64,000 nt of DNA from the IMG/VR virus record IMGVR_UViG_3300021373_001770, positions 1 to 64,000 of that record. The stretch is one strand, 5' to 3'. The notes below the pieces were generated by a model, which saw nothing but the letters and a program-made list of their open reading frames with translations, had not been told where the DNA came from and ran no database searches. Positions 5,236 to 43,626 of this stretch are shown here, one piece after another. Source of the DNA: an uncultured virus (IMG/VR IMGVR_UViG_3300021373_001770) (Duplodnaviria > Heunggongvirae > Uroviricota > Caudoviricetes). The translations under genes were made by a program, and so were the position numbers. Numbering within the stretch: the first letter of the stretch is position 1; each line of letters opens with the position of its first letter.

Positions 5236-5433
5236 TTAAAATTTTAGTAATGACCATCTACGTTGATATTTTCTTATGAGCAAACAATTATTTTTAATTG
5301 CTCTCAGTTCTGATTTGTTGTTAAATTGATTTTCTGATGCTTTTAATGTTTTATTAAGAGTATCATATCTCAGATCTAATAAGTATTTATACATATAATT
5401 TAAGTGCCTGCGTTTTCTTTTTGATTTAAACAT
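5236..5433 (-). CDS. Small basic hypothetical protein
   Basis: ORF track, 65 aa. Confidence 0.55.
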   Translation of the reverse strand: MFKSKRKRRHLNYMYKYLLDLRYDTLNKTLKASENQFNNKSELRAIKNNCLLIRKYQRRWSLLKF

Positions 5434-5456
5434 AATTATTCTTTTATATTATTAGG

Positions 5457-5530
5457 TGGACCCTACAGGGCTTGAACCTGTGACCTACTGATTATGAGTC
5501 AGTTGCTCTAACCATCTGAGCTAAGAGTCC
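5457..5530 (-). tRNA. tRNA with CAT anticodon, most likely tRNA-Ile2 (lysidine type)
   Basis: GGACTCTTAGCTCAGATGGTTAGAGCAACTGA-CTCATAA-TCAGTAGGTCACAGGTTCAAGCCCTGTAGGGTCCA folds as a complete cloverleaf and resembles bacterial ileX. An elongator Met identity is not excluded. Confidence 0.85.
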
Positions 5531-5619
5531 TGGTAGCCGGAGTGGGACTTGAACCCACACGGGTATTACTACCCAACAGATTTTAAGTCTGTCATGTCTA
5601 CCAATTCCATCATCCGGCC
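5531..5619 (-). tRNA. tRNA-Leu(TAA)
   Basis: GGCCGGA/TCCGGCT acceptor stem, anticodon arm ACAGA-CTTAAAA-TCTGT, long variable arm and encoded CCA. Confidence 0.92.
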
Positions 5620-5623
5620 TCTG

Positions 5624-5697
5624 TGATCCCACAAGGATTTGAACCTTGAACCTACAGCTTAGAAGGCTGTTGCTCTATCCAGTTGAGCTATGGGACC
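5624..5697 (-). tRNA. tRNA-Arg(TCT)
   Basis: GGTCCCATAGCTCAACTGGATAGAGC-ACAGC-CTTCTAA-GCTGT...GGTTCAAATCC; complete cloverleaf. Confidence 0.92.
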
Positions 5698-5703
5698 ATA
5701 AGG

Positions 5704-5973
5704 TTATGATCTTGAGCCTGAGAAACCTAATTCATAGGATTCGGCTGGATGTTCTTCTATCCACATATGACAGTTTCTGCAAACTGGCATCCATGTAGAT
5801 ACTTCCAAGTGGTATACACCACGGCCATGTTTATGATGGACATCTGTAGCATGCAAAGAACACTTATGGATCTTTGCATGACAGATAGGGTTGTCTTGTA
5901 AAAACTTTCTACGCTTTTTAGTATAGTCAGTATTTATCTTAGACATTTTTTTAGAGACTTTTTTGATGCTCAT
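5704..5973 (-). CDS. Small HNH endonuclease
   Basis: C...C-ATDVHH...VCRNCH...H pattern. Confidence 0.8.
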   Translation of the reverse strand: MSIKKVSKKMSKINTDYTKKRRKFLQDNPICHAKIHKCSLHATDVHHKHGRGVYHLEVSTWMPVCRNCHMWIEEHPAESYELGFSGSRS

Positions 5974-6490
5974 TTGGTTTTAAAGTGAAATAATTTTTTG
6001 GTAATAATCCTATTGACATAAACTTTAATATTACATCTTCATAAGATATACCAAGTTCTTTAAATGTAAATGTATTTTTGTAATCATCTAATGTTTCTTC
6101 AGCTGGTATACTTACTATATACTGTGCTGTTGGTGAATTTTTAAATGTTTTACTAAAATAAGCATTTATTCTTTTATTACAAAGTGTTTGTTTCCAAGCA
6201 TTTATCTCTCTTTGCCCACGTTTCCAAACTTTTGTAATGCGCCTTTTCTTATCCCAATGTAGTTTAGTAACTTCTTCAGGTTTATAAACTCTAAGTCCAT
6301 GTAATACACGTTTAAACAAAAAATGTTGGTATGGATTAAGTTTACTATATTCTATATTATTAACTATAGAAGGCGGATGCAATTGATATTCTTCTAGTAT
6401 TCCTAGATATTGATAGCGCTCAATACGTTTACTTAATTGAAGTTCTTTCTCATTGAGTCTGATTTTTGATATTTGTTCTATTGATAACAT
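5951..6490 (-). CDS. Hypothetical protein
   Basis: ORF track, 179 aa, in the operon. Confidence 0.75.
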   Translation of the reverse strand: MLSIEQISKIRLNEKELQLSKRIERYQYLGILEEYQLHPPSIVNNIEYSKLNPYQHFLFKRVLHGLRVYKPEEVTKLHWDKKRRITKVWKRGQREINAWKQTLCNKRINAYFSKTFKNSPTAQYIVSIPAEETLDDYKNTFTFKELGISYEDVILKFMSIGLLPKNYFTLKPNEHQKSL

Positions 6491-6586
6491 ACATGTTTAT
6501 TTATTTAATTAAGTGGATTTAAATGTCAAAGAGGGAACAAATAGTTTGCACTATAGTCCCCTCTTATCCATTTTCAGAAATTAATC

Positions 6587-7193: not shown

Positions 7194-7454
7194 TTAAGAA
7201 TCATCTGAATGAAAATACGGGTCTTCTAATTTTTCAAAAGCGCTAATCTCATCTAACGTTGGTTCATTTTCTTCAATGAACTCCTCCTGGATATCAGGTG
7301 GTGTTTTAGCAAAGCTATTGTAAAATGGGTTACCCACTTCCTTTGTATATGCTGAACTAAGGCCATTAAGATCTTTATACTCTTCATCTGTTAATGAAAG
7401 GTACTGTTCAAGAGAACACTCTATTATGCGACCATTAGGAAGTTGTATTATCAT
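7194..7454 (-). CDS. Acidic hypothetical protein
   Basis: ORF track, 86 aa. Confidence 0.7.
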   Translation of the reverse strand: MIIQLPNGRIIECSLEQYLSLTDEEYKDLNGLSSAYTKEVGNPFYNSFAKTPPDIQEEFIEENEPTLDEISAFEKLEDPYFHSDDS

Positions 7455-7818: not shown

Positions 7819-8008
7819 GATCCCTTAGTAACCTAAGTAATGCTGTATTATCATCAGTTTCAGCAGCTAACTCTTCATCTTGTAAGTTAAAAGTTCTATT
7901 CATGAATGCACCAAAAGACTTACCATCTAATGCTTTTTCTCTTTCTTCTTTAACTTTCAGATACTTCTTGAGGTACGATTGAATTGCTTCCGTTGATAGT
8001 TTTGCCAT
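7799..8008 (-). CDS. Hypothetical protein
   Basis: ORF track, 69 aa, overlapping its neighbours. Confidence 0.6.
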   Translation of the reverse strand: MAKLSTEAIQSYLKKYLKVKEEREKALDGKSFGAFMNRTFNLQDEELAAETDDNTALLRLLRDHVQESE

Positions 8009-8516
8009 TATTATTAATTTTATCTAATGAATTCTTTAGTTTATAATAAGGGATATCAGACTTTCTAGTACGCTTTACATACAAAGGATTTATAGTGTGT
8101 TCATAGCGTTTAATTTCTCTATCCCCGTTATGATATAAGATATCAATTTTAATTGAACTATGAAAGGGATTGTATTTTTTATTTGATGACCATGAAGTAT
8201 CACCCATTACAATTCCATATACATCTCCGCTTGAATGCATTAAACCCATATCATTTAAAATATCAATTTCATACTCACTACCTACATGATAACTTGGTGG
8301 TGTAAATCTTACATAATCACCAACGTTTACTTTTTTATAAGGTTCATCAAGTAACATTAGATGAACAGCGCCTTCTAATGCATTATCAGGTATTGAATTA
8401 GCCAATAATTCTGTAATATGCTTTACATTAGCTCTTATATTTACATTTTGCGTGTCTATTAATTTCTCAAATAGTACTTTAATTACATCTTTGTGTAATG
8501 TTATTGTATCAGACAT
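7950..8516 (-). CDS. Hypothetical protein
   Basis: ORF track, 188 aa. Confidence 0.7.
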   Translation of the reverse strand: MSDTITLHKDVIKVLFEKLIDTQNVNIRANVKHITELLANSIPDNALEGAVHLMLLDEPYKKVNVGDYVRFTPPSYHVGSEYEIDILNDMGLMHSSGDVYGIVMGDTSWSSNKKYNPFHSSIKIDILYHNGDREIKRYEHTINPLYVKRTRKSDIPYYKLKNSLDKINNNGKTINGSNSIVPQEVSES

Positions 8517-8539
8517 ATTTATTATTTTTTAAAAATTAA

Positions 8540-8638
8540 AGTCAAGCAGTCCCTATCCTAAACAAGTATGATAAAAGAATAAAGATCTGCTTGACTGTTG
8601 GTCCACTTAACCAATAAAACTATAAGTCACAGGACCAA
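8540..8638 (-). ncRNA. Candidate two-hairpin antisense RNA element
   Basis: Stems AGTCAAGCAG(8540-49)/CTGCTTGACT(8587-96) and TTGGTCC(8598-604)/GGACCAA(8632-38). The loops are complementary to start regions of early genes. Confidence 0.5.
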
Positions 8639-8684
8639 TTGTACTAGTGTTATTATATAATATATAATTACTGGTACTGTTAGT

Positions 8685-8700
8685 GTGTCACCCGTGACAC
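8685..8700. promoter_or_regulatory. Perfect dyad GTGTCAC-CC-GTGACAC (operator-like)
   Basis: 7-bp arms with a 2-nt spacer, intergenic. Confidence 0.4.
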
Positions 8701-8702
8701 TT

Positions 8703-9548
8703 TTAATTTATAAATCTATGTAAATCTGATGGTTCAAATACATATTCAGGAGTATTGACATAATTCATGTCATCTAATGAATACCATACATCATTTGTAA
8801 CCGGATTTAATAAGATGTGTTGTTCTTGAGCTGGCATATAGCTTTGGGCAAGCATAAATATTTTATGACCATTGCTGTTAACTGCCATATCTACTACTGT
8901 AATAGCATGACCAGGAAATCCTCCAGTGATAAATACATCACCGGTTTTCATTTCCCAATAGTTAACATCCTTTGTATCATATTTCTCTATTGAGTATGTA
9001 CCTGCATAACTCCATATTAGATCTAACCAACGTCTGAATGTTTTACAAGTATCTTTACGACTTTTGCCCCATACTGTAGCTATATCACGTCCACCATTGA
9101 CTGGTGTTGGTGATGCTCCTCTAAGATAATCTAGATAACTTGATTTATATCCGTTTGTAAAACTGAATTTTAATTTATCTAAATTACCTTGAGAATAATT
9201 ATAAGATGCTCTCAAGTATATAGCAGCATCAGCACAGTGATGTAAATCTCTTTTACCGATATCATATTTAAATACTGCTGCGTATATATAATTATTGTGT
9301 TTAACACTACCATTAAAGTATTTTACTTCTGTTTTTTCCTTTAAAGGATGATCAGTTAACCAATCAGCATAATCTGACTCAATGAGTCTTTCATATCCTG
9401 ATGGTAACTGAAACAAATTTTTGATGCTTAAGTGGTTGTGTTTGTTATACGTTTGTCCTTGACATTGCATAACGAAGCCCAGTGCTATTATAAGCGTTAT
9501 TAAATAAACTGTGCCTCCATTAAAACGGGTATTATTATTTAGACCCAT
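8703..9548 (-). CDS. DUF4846-family exported protein (papain/NlpC-P60-like Cys-His)
   Basis: Signal peptide, plus DLHHCADAAIYLRA, GDVFITGGFPGHAITVVDMA and FMLAQSYMPAQ. Confidence 0.75.
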   Translation of the reverse strand: MGLNNNTRFNGGTVYLITLIIALGFVMQCQGQTYNKHNHLSIKNLFQLPSGYERLIESDYADWLTDHPLKEKTEVKYFNGSVKHNNYIYAAVFKYDIGKRDLHHCADAAIYLRASYNYSQGNLDKLKFSFTNGYKSSYLDYLRGASPTPVNGGRDIATVWGKSRKDTCKTFRRWLDLIWSYAGTYSIEKYDTKDVNYWEMKTGDVFITGGFPGHAITVVDMAVNSNGHKIFMLAQSYMPAQEQHILLNPVTNDVWYSLDDMNYVNTPEYVFEPSDLHRFIN

Positions 9549-9912: not shown

Positions 9913-10386
9913 TTAATTTTCTGTTACTGTATCTCCATTGTTATAAAACGTGTCTATATCAAATGGCACAAGAAATCTATTCCATTGATTACCGACTTGA
10001 TAATCTATTTTATCTTGTTGATTTATGTAATCTATATTAGTTATTACTATAACATCTATATCAATTACAAATGTATCAACTAAATTTCCTGATGCCCATT
10101 GCATAAATTGTTCTGCGTCACTGGATATATTAGTATTTTGTGCATAGTCTAACCATTGATTCCAAACAAATTCATATTTGGTTTCTGCGGTTATACCATT
10201 GCTATCTATACTATAGAAGCCTAGTAATATATACATGGTTTCATTATTCTGAGCAAAACTATATGCTTCAGAGAATACTTTGACTGTGTCTGTATTCATT
10301 TGATTTACCTCTGGTGTAAACAAAGGCTCTTGCTCACAGCTAGTAATCATAACTGCAAGCAAGAATATTTGCATTATCTTCCCCAT
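9913..10386 (-). CDS. Lipoprotein
   Basis: Signal peptide II MGKIMQIFLLAVMITSC followed by acidic EQE. Confidence 0.7.
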   Translation of the reverse strand: MGKIMQIFLLAVMITSCEQEPLFTPEVNQMNTDTVKVFSEAYSFAQNNETMYILLGFYSIDSNGITAETKYEFVWNQWLDYAQNTNISSDAEQFMQWASGNLVDTFVIDIDVIVITNIDYINQQDKIDYQVGNQWNRFLVPFDIDTFYNNGDTVTEN

Positions 10387-10538
10387 TTGGATCTCTTATG
10401 TTTTTTAGGTTTCCAATAGTTCTTCTTAGCGAACTTTTTCTTTTGGTTTACAGCTCCACATGATCTTGACGATCCACAGGATTGTAATACTGGTGCAGCT
10501 ATAAATAAGAATGCACATAAATAAAGAATCTTTCTCAT
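10374..10538 (-). CDS. Small basic lipoprotein (54 aa)
   Basis: Manual translation MRKILYLCAFLFIAAPVLQSCGSSRSCGAVNQKRKK...; lipobox LQSC. Confidence 0.65.
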   Translation of the reverse strand: MRKILYLCAFLFIAAPVLQSCGSSRSCGAVNQKKKFAKKNYWKPKKHKRSKWGR

Positions 10539-10550
10539 AATACTTGTTTT

Positions 10551-10835
10551 TTAGTTGTAACTATTAGCATACTCTAGAAAGTCTAATGTATGTTGATATG
10601 TTACAGTGATTAATTGATTTTGTTTAGCTAGGTATCTCAACGATTCATTATGCTCAAGTTCTAACTCAAGCTCTACTAATGATGGAGAACCTATTTCTTT
10701 ACGGTTTACACGACTATGTTCCATATCTCCTGTAAAGAGATTAACGAACTCATCTTGTTCACGGCTATATAAGATAATACCTATGGCATTACCCCATGTA
10801 GCAAATTTTTCTGGATAATTGATTTTTACTTTCAT
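10551..10835 (-). CDS. Hypothetical protein
   Basis: ORF track, 94 aa; leader AAAAACAAGT-ATG. Confidence 0.7.
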   Translation of the reverse strand: MKVKINYPEKFATWGNAIGIILYSREQDEFVNLFTGDMEHSRVNRKEIGSPSLVELELELEHNESLRYLAKQNQLITVTYQHTLDFLEYANSYN

Positions 10836-10989
10836 ACTTGTTTTTATTAATGATTATTAGTATTTCTTACGGTTAATAGTTCTATGTGAGTTCAACTTCT
10901 GTTGTTTCACTTGCCTTTTTACTTTTATACTTCTAAATGTTGACATACGATTTGGGTATTAGTGGTTACTTGCAATATTGCGGGTACTA

Positions 10990-11316: not shown

Positions 11317-11652
11317 TTAGATTGGTTCAGCCCAAAACATTCCTGTTTCTTCACCGGTTTGTGTGTCAAGAACAGGATTACTGCTAAGCTTCCACTCCGG
11401 TAGCAAATCATCCTTATTTAGCGTGGACATAAAGTCCCGTGCTAAAGGATGGTCAGCTGTGACCTTATTGCCATCACTATCCTTAACAGATAGCAACCCA
11501 AACACACGGTTAGGCTTTGATGCAATCACAGTCTTACCGGCTAATGTGGTCTTAATAGGAGCACCACTCTCCACAACACTTATGCAATAAGTGTTATTCA
11601 CTTTGTTTACGCAATGCATATGCACACGCAATTCTTTTGCTTTTTCTTCCAT
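11317..11652 (-). CDS. Early hypothetical protein, paralog of 12075-12404
   Basis: Shares the LAG, FGxLS, AxHP, LNxxDxxP, LSxNxV and TGEETxxxW motifs with 12075-12404. Confidence 0.8.
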   Translation of the reverse strand: MEEKAKELRVHMHCVNKVNNTYCISVVESGAPIKTTLAGKTVIASKPNRVFGLLSVKDSDGNKVTADHPLARDFMSTLNKDDLLPEWKLSSNPVLDTQTGEETGMFWAEPI

Positions 11653-11763
11653 AATGTATAAATTTTAAGATTCAATGCATAGATGGGGAGCCGAAGGCAT
11701 AAGAATATGAGCAGATGGAAGTAACAATAGAAGAACACCGAGCAGATAGTAACAAAGAGGATG

Positions 11764-11913
11764 TTACTCCTCTGATAAATCAAACTCCTGTTTGTTTAGT
11801 TTTTTCATCAACCCGTAGAAGTGGTAATCATCCATTAGTTGATGTACTGTGCATCCAAATTTTTCTACACAGATTTGGTTTAGTGTTTCCACTTTTTGTT
11901 TTAAACCATCCAT
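11764..11913 (-). CDS. Small early protein (49 aa)
   Basis: Manual translation MDGLKQKVETLNQICVEKFGCTVHQLMDDYHFYGLMKKLNKQEFDLSEE. It has an A-rich leader and a hairpin over the stop. Confidence 0.55.
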   Translation of the reverse strand: MDGLKQKVETLNQICVEKFGCTVHQLMDDYHFYGLMKKLNKQEFDLSEE

Positions 11914-12074: not shown

Positions 12075-12404
12075 TTAGGCTTGTTCAACCCAACGCAAGT
12101 TAGTTTCTTCCCCTGTGTTCAAGTCCACTACGGCATTGTCACTTAGTTGGAAACCCGGCATTTCATCCCCTTGGTTTAATTTAGTTTGCAAGGCTTTAAT
12201 TGTTGGATGGTTAGCACGCATTACCTGATTAGTTTCAGGGTCAATGAGGCTTAATACACCAAAAGTGATGTTACCATTAGTTCTTGTTCCAACTTTCATT
12301 CCTGCAAGTTCTCCTACTTTGTTTGAGATAGGTTTGTCTGTTACGATGATTGTAGCAGTCCCTGTGTTCTCATTTACTCTTAATTTTCTGAAAAATACTG
12401 ACAT
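12075..12404 (-). CDS. First early gene, hypothetical protein, paralog of 11317-11652
   Basis: ORF track; motif-level similarity to 11317-11652. Confidence 0.8.
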   Translation of the reverse strand: MSVFFRKLRVNENTGTATIIVTDKPISNKVGELAGMKVGTRTNGNITFGVLSLIDPETNQVMRANHPTIKALQTKLNQGDEMPGFQLSDNAVVDLNTGEETNLRWVEQA

Positions 12405-12648
12405 TTTTTTAATTATTTAGATTAATATTATTTTTATGTGCATACACGTGGGGGGTACCCACCGCACATTTTTTAGCTGGGGAGCAGATTGGTAGAACCT
12501 TCTTAGAACTTAAAACACATAACTTTTGGGGGGCCGTGGGCAGAGTTTTATAGAGTAGGGGGACATGTTATGACTTAAAAATTTTTATAGGATTTAGAAA
12601 TTTAGTATATTGTCTTTATAGAAGAGTTACTAATTAAATTTTAATGGT
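12405..12648. promoter_or_regulatory. Divergent strand-switch control region
   Basis: Genes diverge here. It holds several G runs and the hairpin ATGTGC..GTGGG..CCCAC..GCACAT. Confidence 0.6.
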
Positions 12649-43546: not shown

Positions 43547-43552
43547 AAAAAA

Positions 43553-43626
43553 CAACAAGTGGTGGTTTGTTGGTTTTTCTACTACAAACGTTGGGAGAGA
43601 CTGGGGTGACTCAGTCTCTTTTTTTT
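43553..43626 (+). ncRNA. Candidate small RNA: antisense-loop hairpin plus terminator
   Basis: GTGGTGG(43559-65)/CTACTAC(43579-85) stem with 2 G-U pairs, loop TTTGTTGGTTTTT, outer stem CAAC/GTTG, then a terminator. Confidence 0.55.
43595..43626 (+). terminator. Intrinsic terminator
   Basis: GAGAGACTGGG-gtga-CTCAGTCTCT followed by a T run. Confidence 0.85.

Follow-up and report, generated by a model that had tools for sequence, protein, structure and literature searches.

A conserved two-module hairpin element of crAss-like phages with a putative antisense role at the start of a same-strand gene

An intergenic element of about 160 nt in the genome of a crAss-like virus is real and conserved among relatives and, as far as sequence comparison can tell, probably a functional antisense element. 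We place at roughly two in three the probability that it is a conserved two-site antisense element which represses translation initiation of gene 6490 (5951..6490, minus strand), both pairing and repression being read from complementarity. The element lies in the window, the whole stretch of 64,000 nucleotides analyzed here, which makes up the initial 64 kb of a virus record of 71.5 kb (IMGVR_UViG_3300021373_001770). The initial annotation had described a minus-strand RNA hairpin with a loop antisense to start regions. That hairpin is conserved and co-varies with a target leader, but the element has a further antisense module besides it. This further module and the co-variation with gene 6490 are new here.

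According to the mechanism we favor, positions 8540-8640 would be transcribed on the minus strand together with the surrounding early/middle genes and would form a two-armed antisense RNA. The long stem would hold open a U-rich loop of 15-18 nt, which would pair with gene 6490 across its AUG and the ~8 leader bases before it; a linker segment (P2) would pair 15-40 nt further upstream in the same leader. Both arms would cover the ribosome landing region, where A-rich positions are expected to favor initiation in this phylum, and initiation would be repressed; the host phylum presumably does not use Shine-Dalgarno pairing. The loop also matches the start of the small upstream gene 10835 and, depending on the lineage, that of 10538 or of the 9883 homolog, which would make up a small regulon. 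The action could be either in cis within one long mRNA or that of a released small RNA.

Genomic setting

The crAss-like phages are among the most abundant viruses. The capsid, portal, terminase and muzzle proteins of the window match crAss-like families; the genes before position 12.4 kb lie on the minus strand and the virion genes on the plus strand. Since complete relatives have genomes of 108-117 kb, the record is partial. A host among the Bacteroidota is inferred from the phage group and from A-rich leaders without Shine-Dalgarno words. The sequencing runs containing the stretch are of marine or marsh origin. No cultured relative was found, as two neighbor genes had no tblastn match, the capsid was at most 29% identical, and the element was unmatched. 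Seven RNA runs contain part of the stretch, and four of them were aligned to it. Metatranscriptome contigs from one marine sample, which carry neither strand nor ends, bridge the element; they cover the whole region at like depth, a pattern that DNA could yield as well. A promoter scan found 32 promoters against 44 expected, i.e., at or below chance.

Directly upstream of the element lies a DUF4846 gene (8703-9548, minus strand), which is present only in some relatives. On the other side is the gene of a 188-aa protein (7950..8516, minus strand), which starts 23 nt after the hairpin and for which the element may be the 5′ leader. It was observed that in a distant clade the DUF4846 gene runs straight into the 188-aa homolog, the element being absent there.

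Gene 6490, the main co-evolving target, encodes a 179-aa all-helical protein with a confident structure model (pLDDT 93). The gene is widespread, 583 of 600 candidates being relatives. A fold search gave a best Z of 4.2 with no viral match under E 0.001, and the Atlas gave no match for gene 6490 or 10835; neither result implies novelty or absence. The products of 6490, 10835 and 10538 have no Pfam family at cut-off and no PHROG. A terminator-like hairpin (6530..6564, minus strand) lies between the gene of a 187-aa protein and gene 6490, and was found in 12 folded loci with U-tracts of varying strength. Downstream of gene 6490 are three tRNA genes (Met, Leu-TAA and Arg-TCT; 5455-5697, minus strand).

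Architecture of the element

The element has four parts, P0, P1, P2 and P3, and the hairpin P3 is its 3′ part. The perfect 10-bp stem reported before (8540-8549/8587-8596) and the plus-strand 12-mer reported in its loop (8560-8571) were both found exactly as written. It had been overlooked that the stem extends by 10 further pairs on the minus strand (8550-8559/8576-8585, three of them G-U), and the loop is therefore 16 nt long (8560-8575). P3 (8540..8596, minus strand) is composed of an outer stem 8587-8596/8540-8549, a bulge at 8586, an inner stem 8576-8585/8550-8559 and the 16-nt loop, with 20 bp in total. The loop (8560..8575, minus strand), termed module B, is antisense to leader plus AUG and covers −8 to +4 of the target start codons. 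P2 (8597..8640, minus strand) is a G/U-rich linker with a weak hairpin in the window genome; it contains module A (8602-8614), which is partly buried in this local hairpin. In P1 (8641..8683, minus strand), an AT-rich inverted repeat comes after a 13-nt motif (8671-8683) that hardly varies, and P0 (8685..8700, either strand) is a 6-4-6 inverted repeat with compensatory changes at all six pairs. Folding of 8517-8705 gave −54 kcal/mol (z −5.47) for the minus strand and −46.4 kcal/mol (z −4.79) for the plus strand.

P3 does not look like an intrinsic terminator: its loop is of 16 nt, it is absent from the terminator-scan list and no U-tract is conserved after it; an A-rich tail follows it in L149, L162 and L171. 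The stems of 16-29 pairs found among relatives are compatible in length with an RNase III-type stem. Rfam returned only tRNAs at gathering for the window and five relatives, and at E ≤ 10 over 8400-8800 it gave six weak unrelated matches, none of them to C4. Twelve nucleotides in the 5′ inner arm of P3 (8571-8583) are antisense to the ORF 5236-5433 leader. This match is probably due to chance and is mostly buried in the stem.

Conservation among relatives

The first set of loci comprised the best 80 of 336, fetched with an alignment of the 86-aa gene at 7194-7454. With the window and five further loci, it provided 48 distinct regions upstream of the 188-aa homolog; loci without this homolog or with less than 230 nt upstream were left out. 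Of these 48 regions, 39 have retained a hairpin at the syntenic position that carries the loop core. The stems are swapped out wholesale between relatives while the loop is conserved. In the case of 12 clade representatives, the left arms are 30% identical, and nevertheless the own right arm gave the best pairing in all 12 (−22 kcal/mol for own against −7 kcal/mol for swapped arms), in a comparison biased toward own-arm pairing by the definition of the arms through folding. This arm-swap test was used in place of column-wise covariation. With a MAFFT alignment of P3, RNAalifold gave no consensus and a slid register beat the named one, because the stems are unrelated and the loop lengths differ. 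The 12 representatives have z-scores from −2.0 to −6.9 and loops that are 59-97% unpaired. When each strand was folded separately, 27 G-U pairs were counted on the sense strand versus 4 on the opposite one.

A second scan, seeded on a distant homolog and covering 80 loci, yielded 23 new distinct elements, 20 loci with no motif near the anchor and 5 without the anchor. Thirteen of these 20 motif-less loci were rechecked: the motif lay further off in three, and ten had no element in the 10-kb locus. The gene-6490 leaders of these ten distant loci often retain a similar C-rich word. The exact stem pattern was found in viral contigs at three loci, one of them a near-identical relative. For the exact 16-nt loop, an enclosing hairpin below −20 kcal/mol was present, among 80 loci examined, only in the near-identical relative and in G001, and the remaining loci were used as background. 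In an outgroup clade (L006:8590-8680, L010:8590-8690, L294, L295, L296 and L298), P3 folds into a branched stem whose interior holds another conserved word. There is no start-codon loop in that clade, and P2 still fits the gene-6490 leader.

These folds bear on the strand of the element. If the plus strand were transcribed, the loop would hold a sense copy of the leader, a decoy that captures ribosomes or a translational repressor, or would be the start of a tiny plus-strand ORF. The plus-strand fold (z −4.79) and a terminator-like site on the plus strand at 8685-8700 agree with such a scheme. It is nonetheless highly improbable, as the sense (minus) strand gives the more stable fold in 37 of the 39 hairpin-bearing regions, the plus-strand ATG is missing in L143, L146, L173 and L178, and P0 read on the plus strand has two A-C mismatches in L143 and L161.

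Loop matches in the window genome

In the 64-kb window, the 12-mer has exactly two perfect copies, at 8560 (plus strand) and at 10832-10843 (minus strand), in agreement with the initial annotation, and the 10/10 match at 10540-10549 is also as reported. The former target comprises leader and ATG of ORF 10551-10835 (94 aa, no family; site 10832..10843, minus strand, 12/12 with the loop), the latter the leader of ORF 10374-10538 (54 aa, with a lipoprotein-like signal read from sequence; site 10540..10549, minus strand). To obtain the 11/12 match given for 6488-6499, one must include base 8559, which closes the stem; the 12-mer itself has two mismatches there. The loop proper forms 10 of 11 pairs, with one U-U, at the leader plus AUG of gene 6490 (target site B, 6488..6498, minus strand), and 11 of 11 in several relatives.

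Compared with shuffled loops, these matches are modestly above chance and weak in a single genome: 103 of 5000 shuffled loops reached an antisense match of at least 12 nt to one of 67 start regions, and 33 of 5000 gave at least 12 nt plus a second match of at least 10. Among 7662 intergenic 16-mers, 95 had an antisense match of at least 12 nt to a start region; these 95 represent 19 binned site-gene pairs, two of which are at the element. The match in a single genome is only modestly beyond chance, and the support therefore rests on the relatives.

On these numbers one may ask if the hairpin serves processing, stability or termination, with an RNase III-type stem, the matches being a by-product of A-rich leaders and a U-rich loop. 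Stems of 17-29 pairs, the fact that 12-nt antisense matches to starts are not rare in the window genome, and the absence of the match in some lineages speak for it. However, it is the loop and not the stem that is conserved, the loop pairs with the remaining starts in the operon only at the shuffled level, and the own-genome excess described below is specific to gene 6490 and was replicated in held-out loci. This explanation is already weakened, and we regard it as improbable.

Co-variation of the loop with start regions

The co-variation of loop and leaders, proposed earlier as a check, was found for gene 6490 and was not significant for 10835 and 10538. With the start of gene 6490, the loop paired at −7.84 kcal/mol within the own genome, at −6.11 after swapping and at −3.02 after shuffling, and none of 20000 permutations was as good (n = 25, related rows). 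The corresponding energies were −12.89, −12.51 and −4.43 kcal/mol for the 10835 start (p 0.088, n = 10), −7.18, −6.92 and −4.63 kcal/mol for the 10538 start (p 0.25, n = 22), and −5.75, −4.96 and −3.94 kcal/mol for the 9883 start (p 0.012, n = 22). Pairing with the starts of six other neighbor genes was at the shuffled level. In a cluster test restricted to P3, gene 6490 gave a median p of 0.0025 with 20 clusters, and 0.034 (worst 0.21) with 10 clusters; two control genes stood at median p 0.026 and 0.036 at the 90% level. The hairpin had been proposed to shut off, possibly, earlier genes. Gene 6490 does co-evolve with the loop, but it lies 2 kb downstream and is not among the earlier genes.

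For 15 whole or partial genomes (53-112 predicted genes, by a crude longest-ORF rule), all start regions were ranked, and the top-ranked one was the homolog of 6490, 10835, 10538 or 9883 in 11. The best energy beat all but at most 3 of 60 shuffles in only 5 of the 15. The top rank was held by the 10538 homolog in the relative G029. In 14 of 14 loci with the canonical loop, the gene-10835 leaders carry the matching motif, and in none of 4 without it (related rows). Judged from these sequences, 10835 and 10538 may be additional targets of the loop in some lineages. Two other matches were considered and rejected. The one to the portal gene in G012 (0 of 60 shuffles) is doubtful because G011 shares the leader and has no P3; the one to the gene of a 325-aa protein in G009, 31 kb away, was reached by 7 of 60 shuffles.

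On a tree of 47 rows, one clean compensatory change was seen at −2 (clade L173-L202). At −3, there were two independent co-changes (L139 and L180), both leading to a C-A mismatch instead of a pair. Loop extensions fit codons 2-3 of gene 6490 (L195/L202 and L180/L200), and loop and leader motif were lost together in L210, L172 and L167. The switches of the loop core are too few (two pairs per trait), so a sign test cannot reach 0.05. The fits of loop and target tolerate G-U pairs and bulges. The hairpin is kept and the loop does not fit the gene-6490 start in L146, L161-163 and L193/196, and L335 has a mismatch. The best fit of the L162 loop is to the 9883 homolog.

P0, P1 and a possible role as DNA sites

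The 5′ motif of P1 is present in all 48 distinct regions, with at most one perfect copy per genome, and the sense strand gives the more stable P1 fold in 13 of the 48. In P0, 26 G-U positions were counted versus 18 A-C positions. P0 and P1 have no clear sense-strand bias and are therefore possibly DNA signals, not RNA. P1 is possibly a promoter or operator rather than an RNA. The single-copy P0/P1 segment (8641-8700) may function as an origin, a promoter or an operator; a helix-turn-helix gene that lies three genes downstream of the element resembles replication initiators. The P1 motif was also considered as antisense to this gene and was rejected, as no co-variation was found with the codons of the gene.

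One may extend the argument and regard the shared words as sites in DNA or single-stranded DNA for a phage protein, used in both orientations, which changed together as its specificity shifted, the hairpin having another role. The lack of clear strand bias in P0 and P1 and the nearby helix-turn-helix gene would suit this proposal, and a degenerate DNA motif accounts for the C-A states at −3 more readily than pairing does. Nevertheless, P3 is strand-biased, the word is placed exactly in the open loop, G-U pairs, bulged fits and extensions into codons 2-3 are tolerated, and a single leader changes along with two words, A and B, that are unrelated to each other. We consider the proposal to have a low probability.

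The second antisense module

Module A (8602-8614) in P2 can form 13 contiguous pairs, two of them G-U, with the gene-6490 leader at 6505..6517 (minus strand; target site A), 15-27 nt before the AUG. P2 paired with the upstream leader of gene 6490 at −14.5 kcal/mol within the own genome, −12.45 after swapping and −10.7 after shuffling, with 0 of 10000 permutations as good (n = 35). There was no own-genome excess by energy with eight other genes; 10538 gave p 0.012 by exact-match length only. Searched against all start regions of single genomes, P2 did not rise above shuffles, the best case (1/30) being a self-match.

The whole element was then compared with the 5′ region of gene 6490 using one row per cluster and 66 elements. 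The values obtained were p < 0.001 with 41 clusters (90% identity), ≤0.001 with 27 clusters (85%) and a median p of 0.0085, worst 0.09, with 16 clusters (80%); four control neighbors from the operon gave nothing. In held-out loci (20 elements), the P2 result was replicated with median p of 0.011 (17 clusters) and 0.017 (14 clusters), three control genes were null, and the held-out locus L367 has 13 exact P2-leader pairs. The element pairs best with the gene-6490 leader of its own phage, which makes gene 6490 the co-evolving partner. Since the modules, anti-A then anti-B, follow the same order as sites A and B, the element does not simply repeat the leader in inverted form.

In the window, 11 nt of leader plus ATG of a 49-aa ORF (11764-11913, minus strand) are complementary to the loop of the P2 hairpin (8610-8624). 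In the near-identical relative L001, this ORF is not listed and one base differs in the P2-hairpin loop; this is a single case.

Action in cis or in trans

The element and gene 6490 being on the same strand, the lack of a conserved U-tract after P3 and the next start codon 23 nt on point toward an action in cis. On the other hand, site A comes after a terminator-like hairpin, and a repeated early-gene motif lies, in several clades, between P3 and the next gene; both observations point toward an action in trans.

The same observations admit a different reading, in which the real pairing is a long-range fold in a polycistronic mRNA that couples both ends, through the 188-aa gene start, cleavage of the long stem or read-through before site A; control could then be exerted by the 6490 leader on the element. 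In favor of this reading, the two partners share a strand and are separated by 2 kb, P3 has no conserved U-tract and directly adjoins the following start codon, and site A comes right after the terminator-like hairpin. Moreover, pairing is symmetric, and co-variation cannot tell which side is controlled. But the loop covers the AUG, which means that gene 6490 cannot initiate while paired, and the loop also fits separate upstream genes. The early-gene motif between P3 and the 188-aa gene in several clades, if it is a promoter as we infer, would place P3 on a separate transcript. We hold the long-range fold to be unlikely, and antisense repression of gene 6490 remains the preferred reading.

A bolder version of antisense repression, which is tentative and rather doubtful, is a two-point clamp in one mRNA. 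Linker and loop would reach 2 kb across the terminator-like hairpin and lock the 6490 start, while upstream starts would compete for the loop and so time an early-to-later switch. The loop would be a re-aimable guide pointed at different genes by clade (the 9883 homolog in G014, the portal gene in G012 and the 325-aa gene in G009).

Comparison with known systems

In the c4 RNA, two single-stranded segments pair with two target sites, and these sites lie both upstream and downstream of the RNA; RNase P cuts the RNA out of a precursor. The c4 RNA of phage P1 is a same-operon antisense RNA (c4-icd-ant) needed to repress ant (PMC8198154). Like c4 of P1/P7 and the CI RNA of P4, the element would be a structured phage RNA on the same strand as its target and upstream of it, and by computation it has two distinct segments, each complementary to its own site in the target leader. 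The layout resembles the c4 operon in that the element lies 2 kb upstream of gene 6490 on the same strand; a terminator-like hairpin stands between them and co-transcription is putative. By analogy, the element may work like P1 c4, yet it is no Rfam C4 member, the covariance model giving no match even at E ≤ 10. The fold also differs, with a linker beside a single long stem that carries a 16-nt loop. In addition, the proposed target, at a distance of 2 kb, encodes a protein without known family and is not the icd/ant antirepressor operon, the element occurs in a crAss-like phage and not in a temperate coliphage, and its loop appears re-aimed at other genes in some clades.

In Bacteroides, which is without Shine-Dalgarno sequences, the small RNA GibS represses mRNAs by pairing over the start codon and has several targets (PMC7366714). 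The element would share with this RNA of the Bacteroidota a seed complementary to the start regions of several distant mRNAs. Unlike the element, GibS is a host small RNA with an unstructured 5′ seed and mapped ends; here, a hairpin loop plus linker, with no conserved terminator, would act from a putative transcript.

The OOP RNA of lambda and the sar RNA of P22 are read from the strand opposite their target and are fully complementary to it. The element resembles them as a phage RNA proposed to block a phage mRNA start region, but it is on the same strand as its targets, 2 kb away, and would pair over 7-14 nt per site. The replicase start of MS2 is hidden by long-range pairing with a coding sequence that ribosomes open. 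Same-strand pairing over a distant start region is common to both cases, whereas the partner here is a dedicated intergenic hairpin loop.

No description of the element was found in a literature search that covered few subscription papers. Supplement files 3-6 of Fremin 2023 (PMC10690425), the largest catalog of candidate RNAs from viruses, gave no short-motif match, and the element may be among the candidates in the rest of that supplement; the accessible part of PMC8375218 has no antisense RNA. The known control of crAss-like genes is transcriptional, with a virion polymerase acting early and host polymerase later (bioRxiv 10.1101/2020.03.07.982082). Two long non-coding RNAs of phi14:2 appear in that study with no function assigned. 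If our reading is correct, a conserved antisense element with named target sites would constitute a translational layer in crAss-like gene control and would show how starts get blocked in hosts that do not use Shine-Dalgarno pairing. It would also mark gene 6490 as a protein whose dose the phage controls closely, and would offer exact base pairs for reporter and compensatory tests that need no phage culture.

The 43.5-kb element and other observations

The hairpin had been considered to be of the same design as an element at 43.5 kb (43547-43625, plus strand). The idea is alike, but the two are separate families that have only short G/U-rich words in common. The 43.5-kb element is a hairpin with a terminator, and one pattern finds near-invariant copies of it in 8 of 17 genome sets. 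Its loop is the complement of a word that stays invariant in front of the next gene after the portal gene (24427 here). Unlike P3, it is on the late strand, is followed by a terminator, is near-invariant and pairs upstream of the AUG.

Two small early genes (11317-11652 and 12075-12404, minus strand), which are apparently related, head the minus-strand region, and relatives have one or two copies of such genes. A C-rich motif recurs 40-100 nt before early-strand genes in the window (12478-12487 and 11683-11693, minus strand) as well as in relatives. With 1-5 copies per genome, it is a candidate early promoter.
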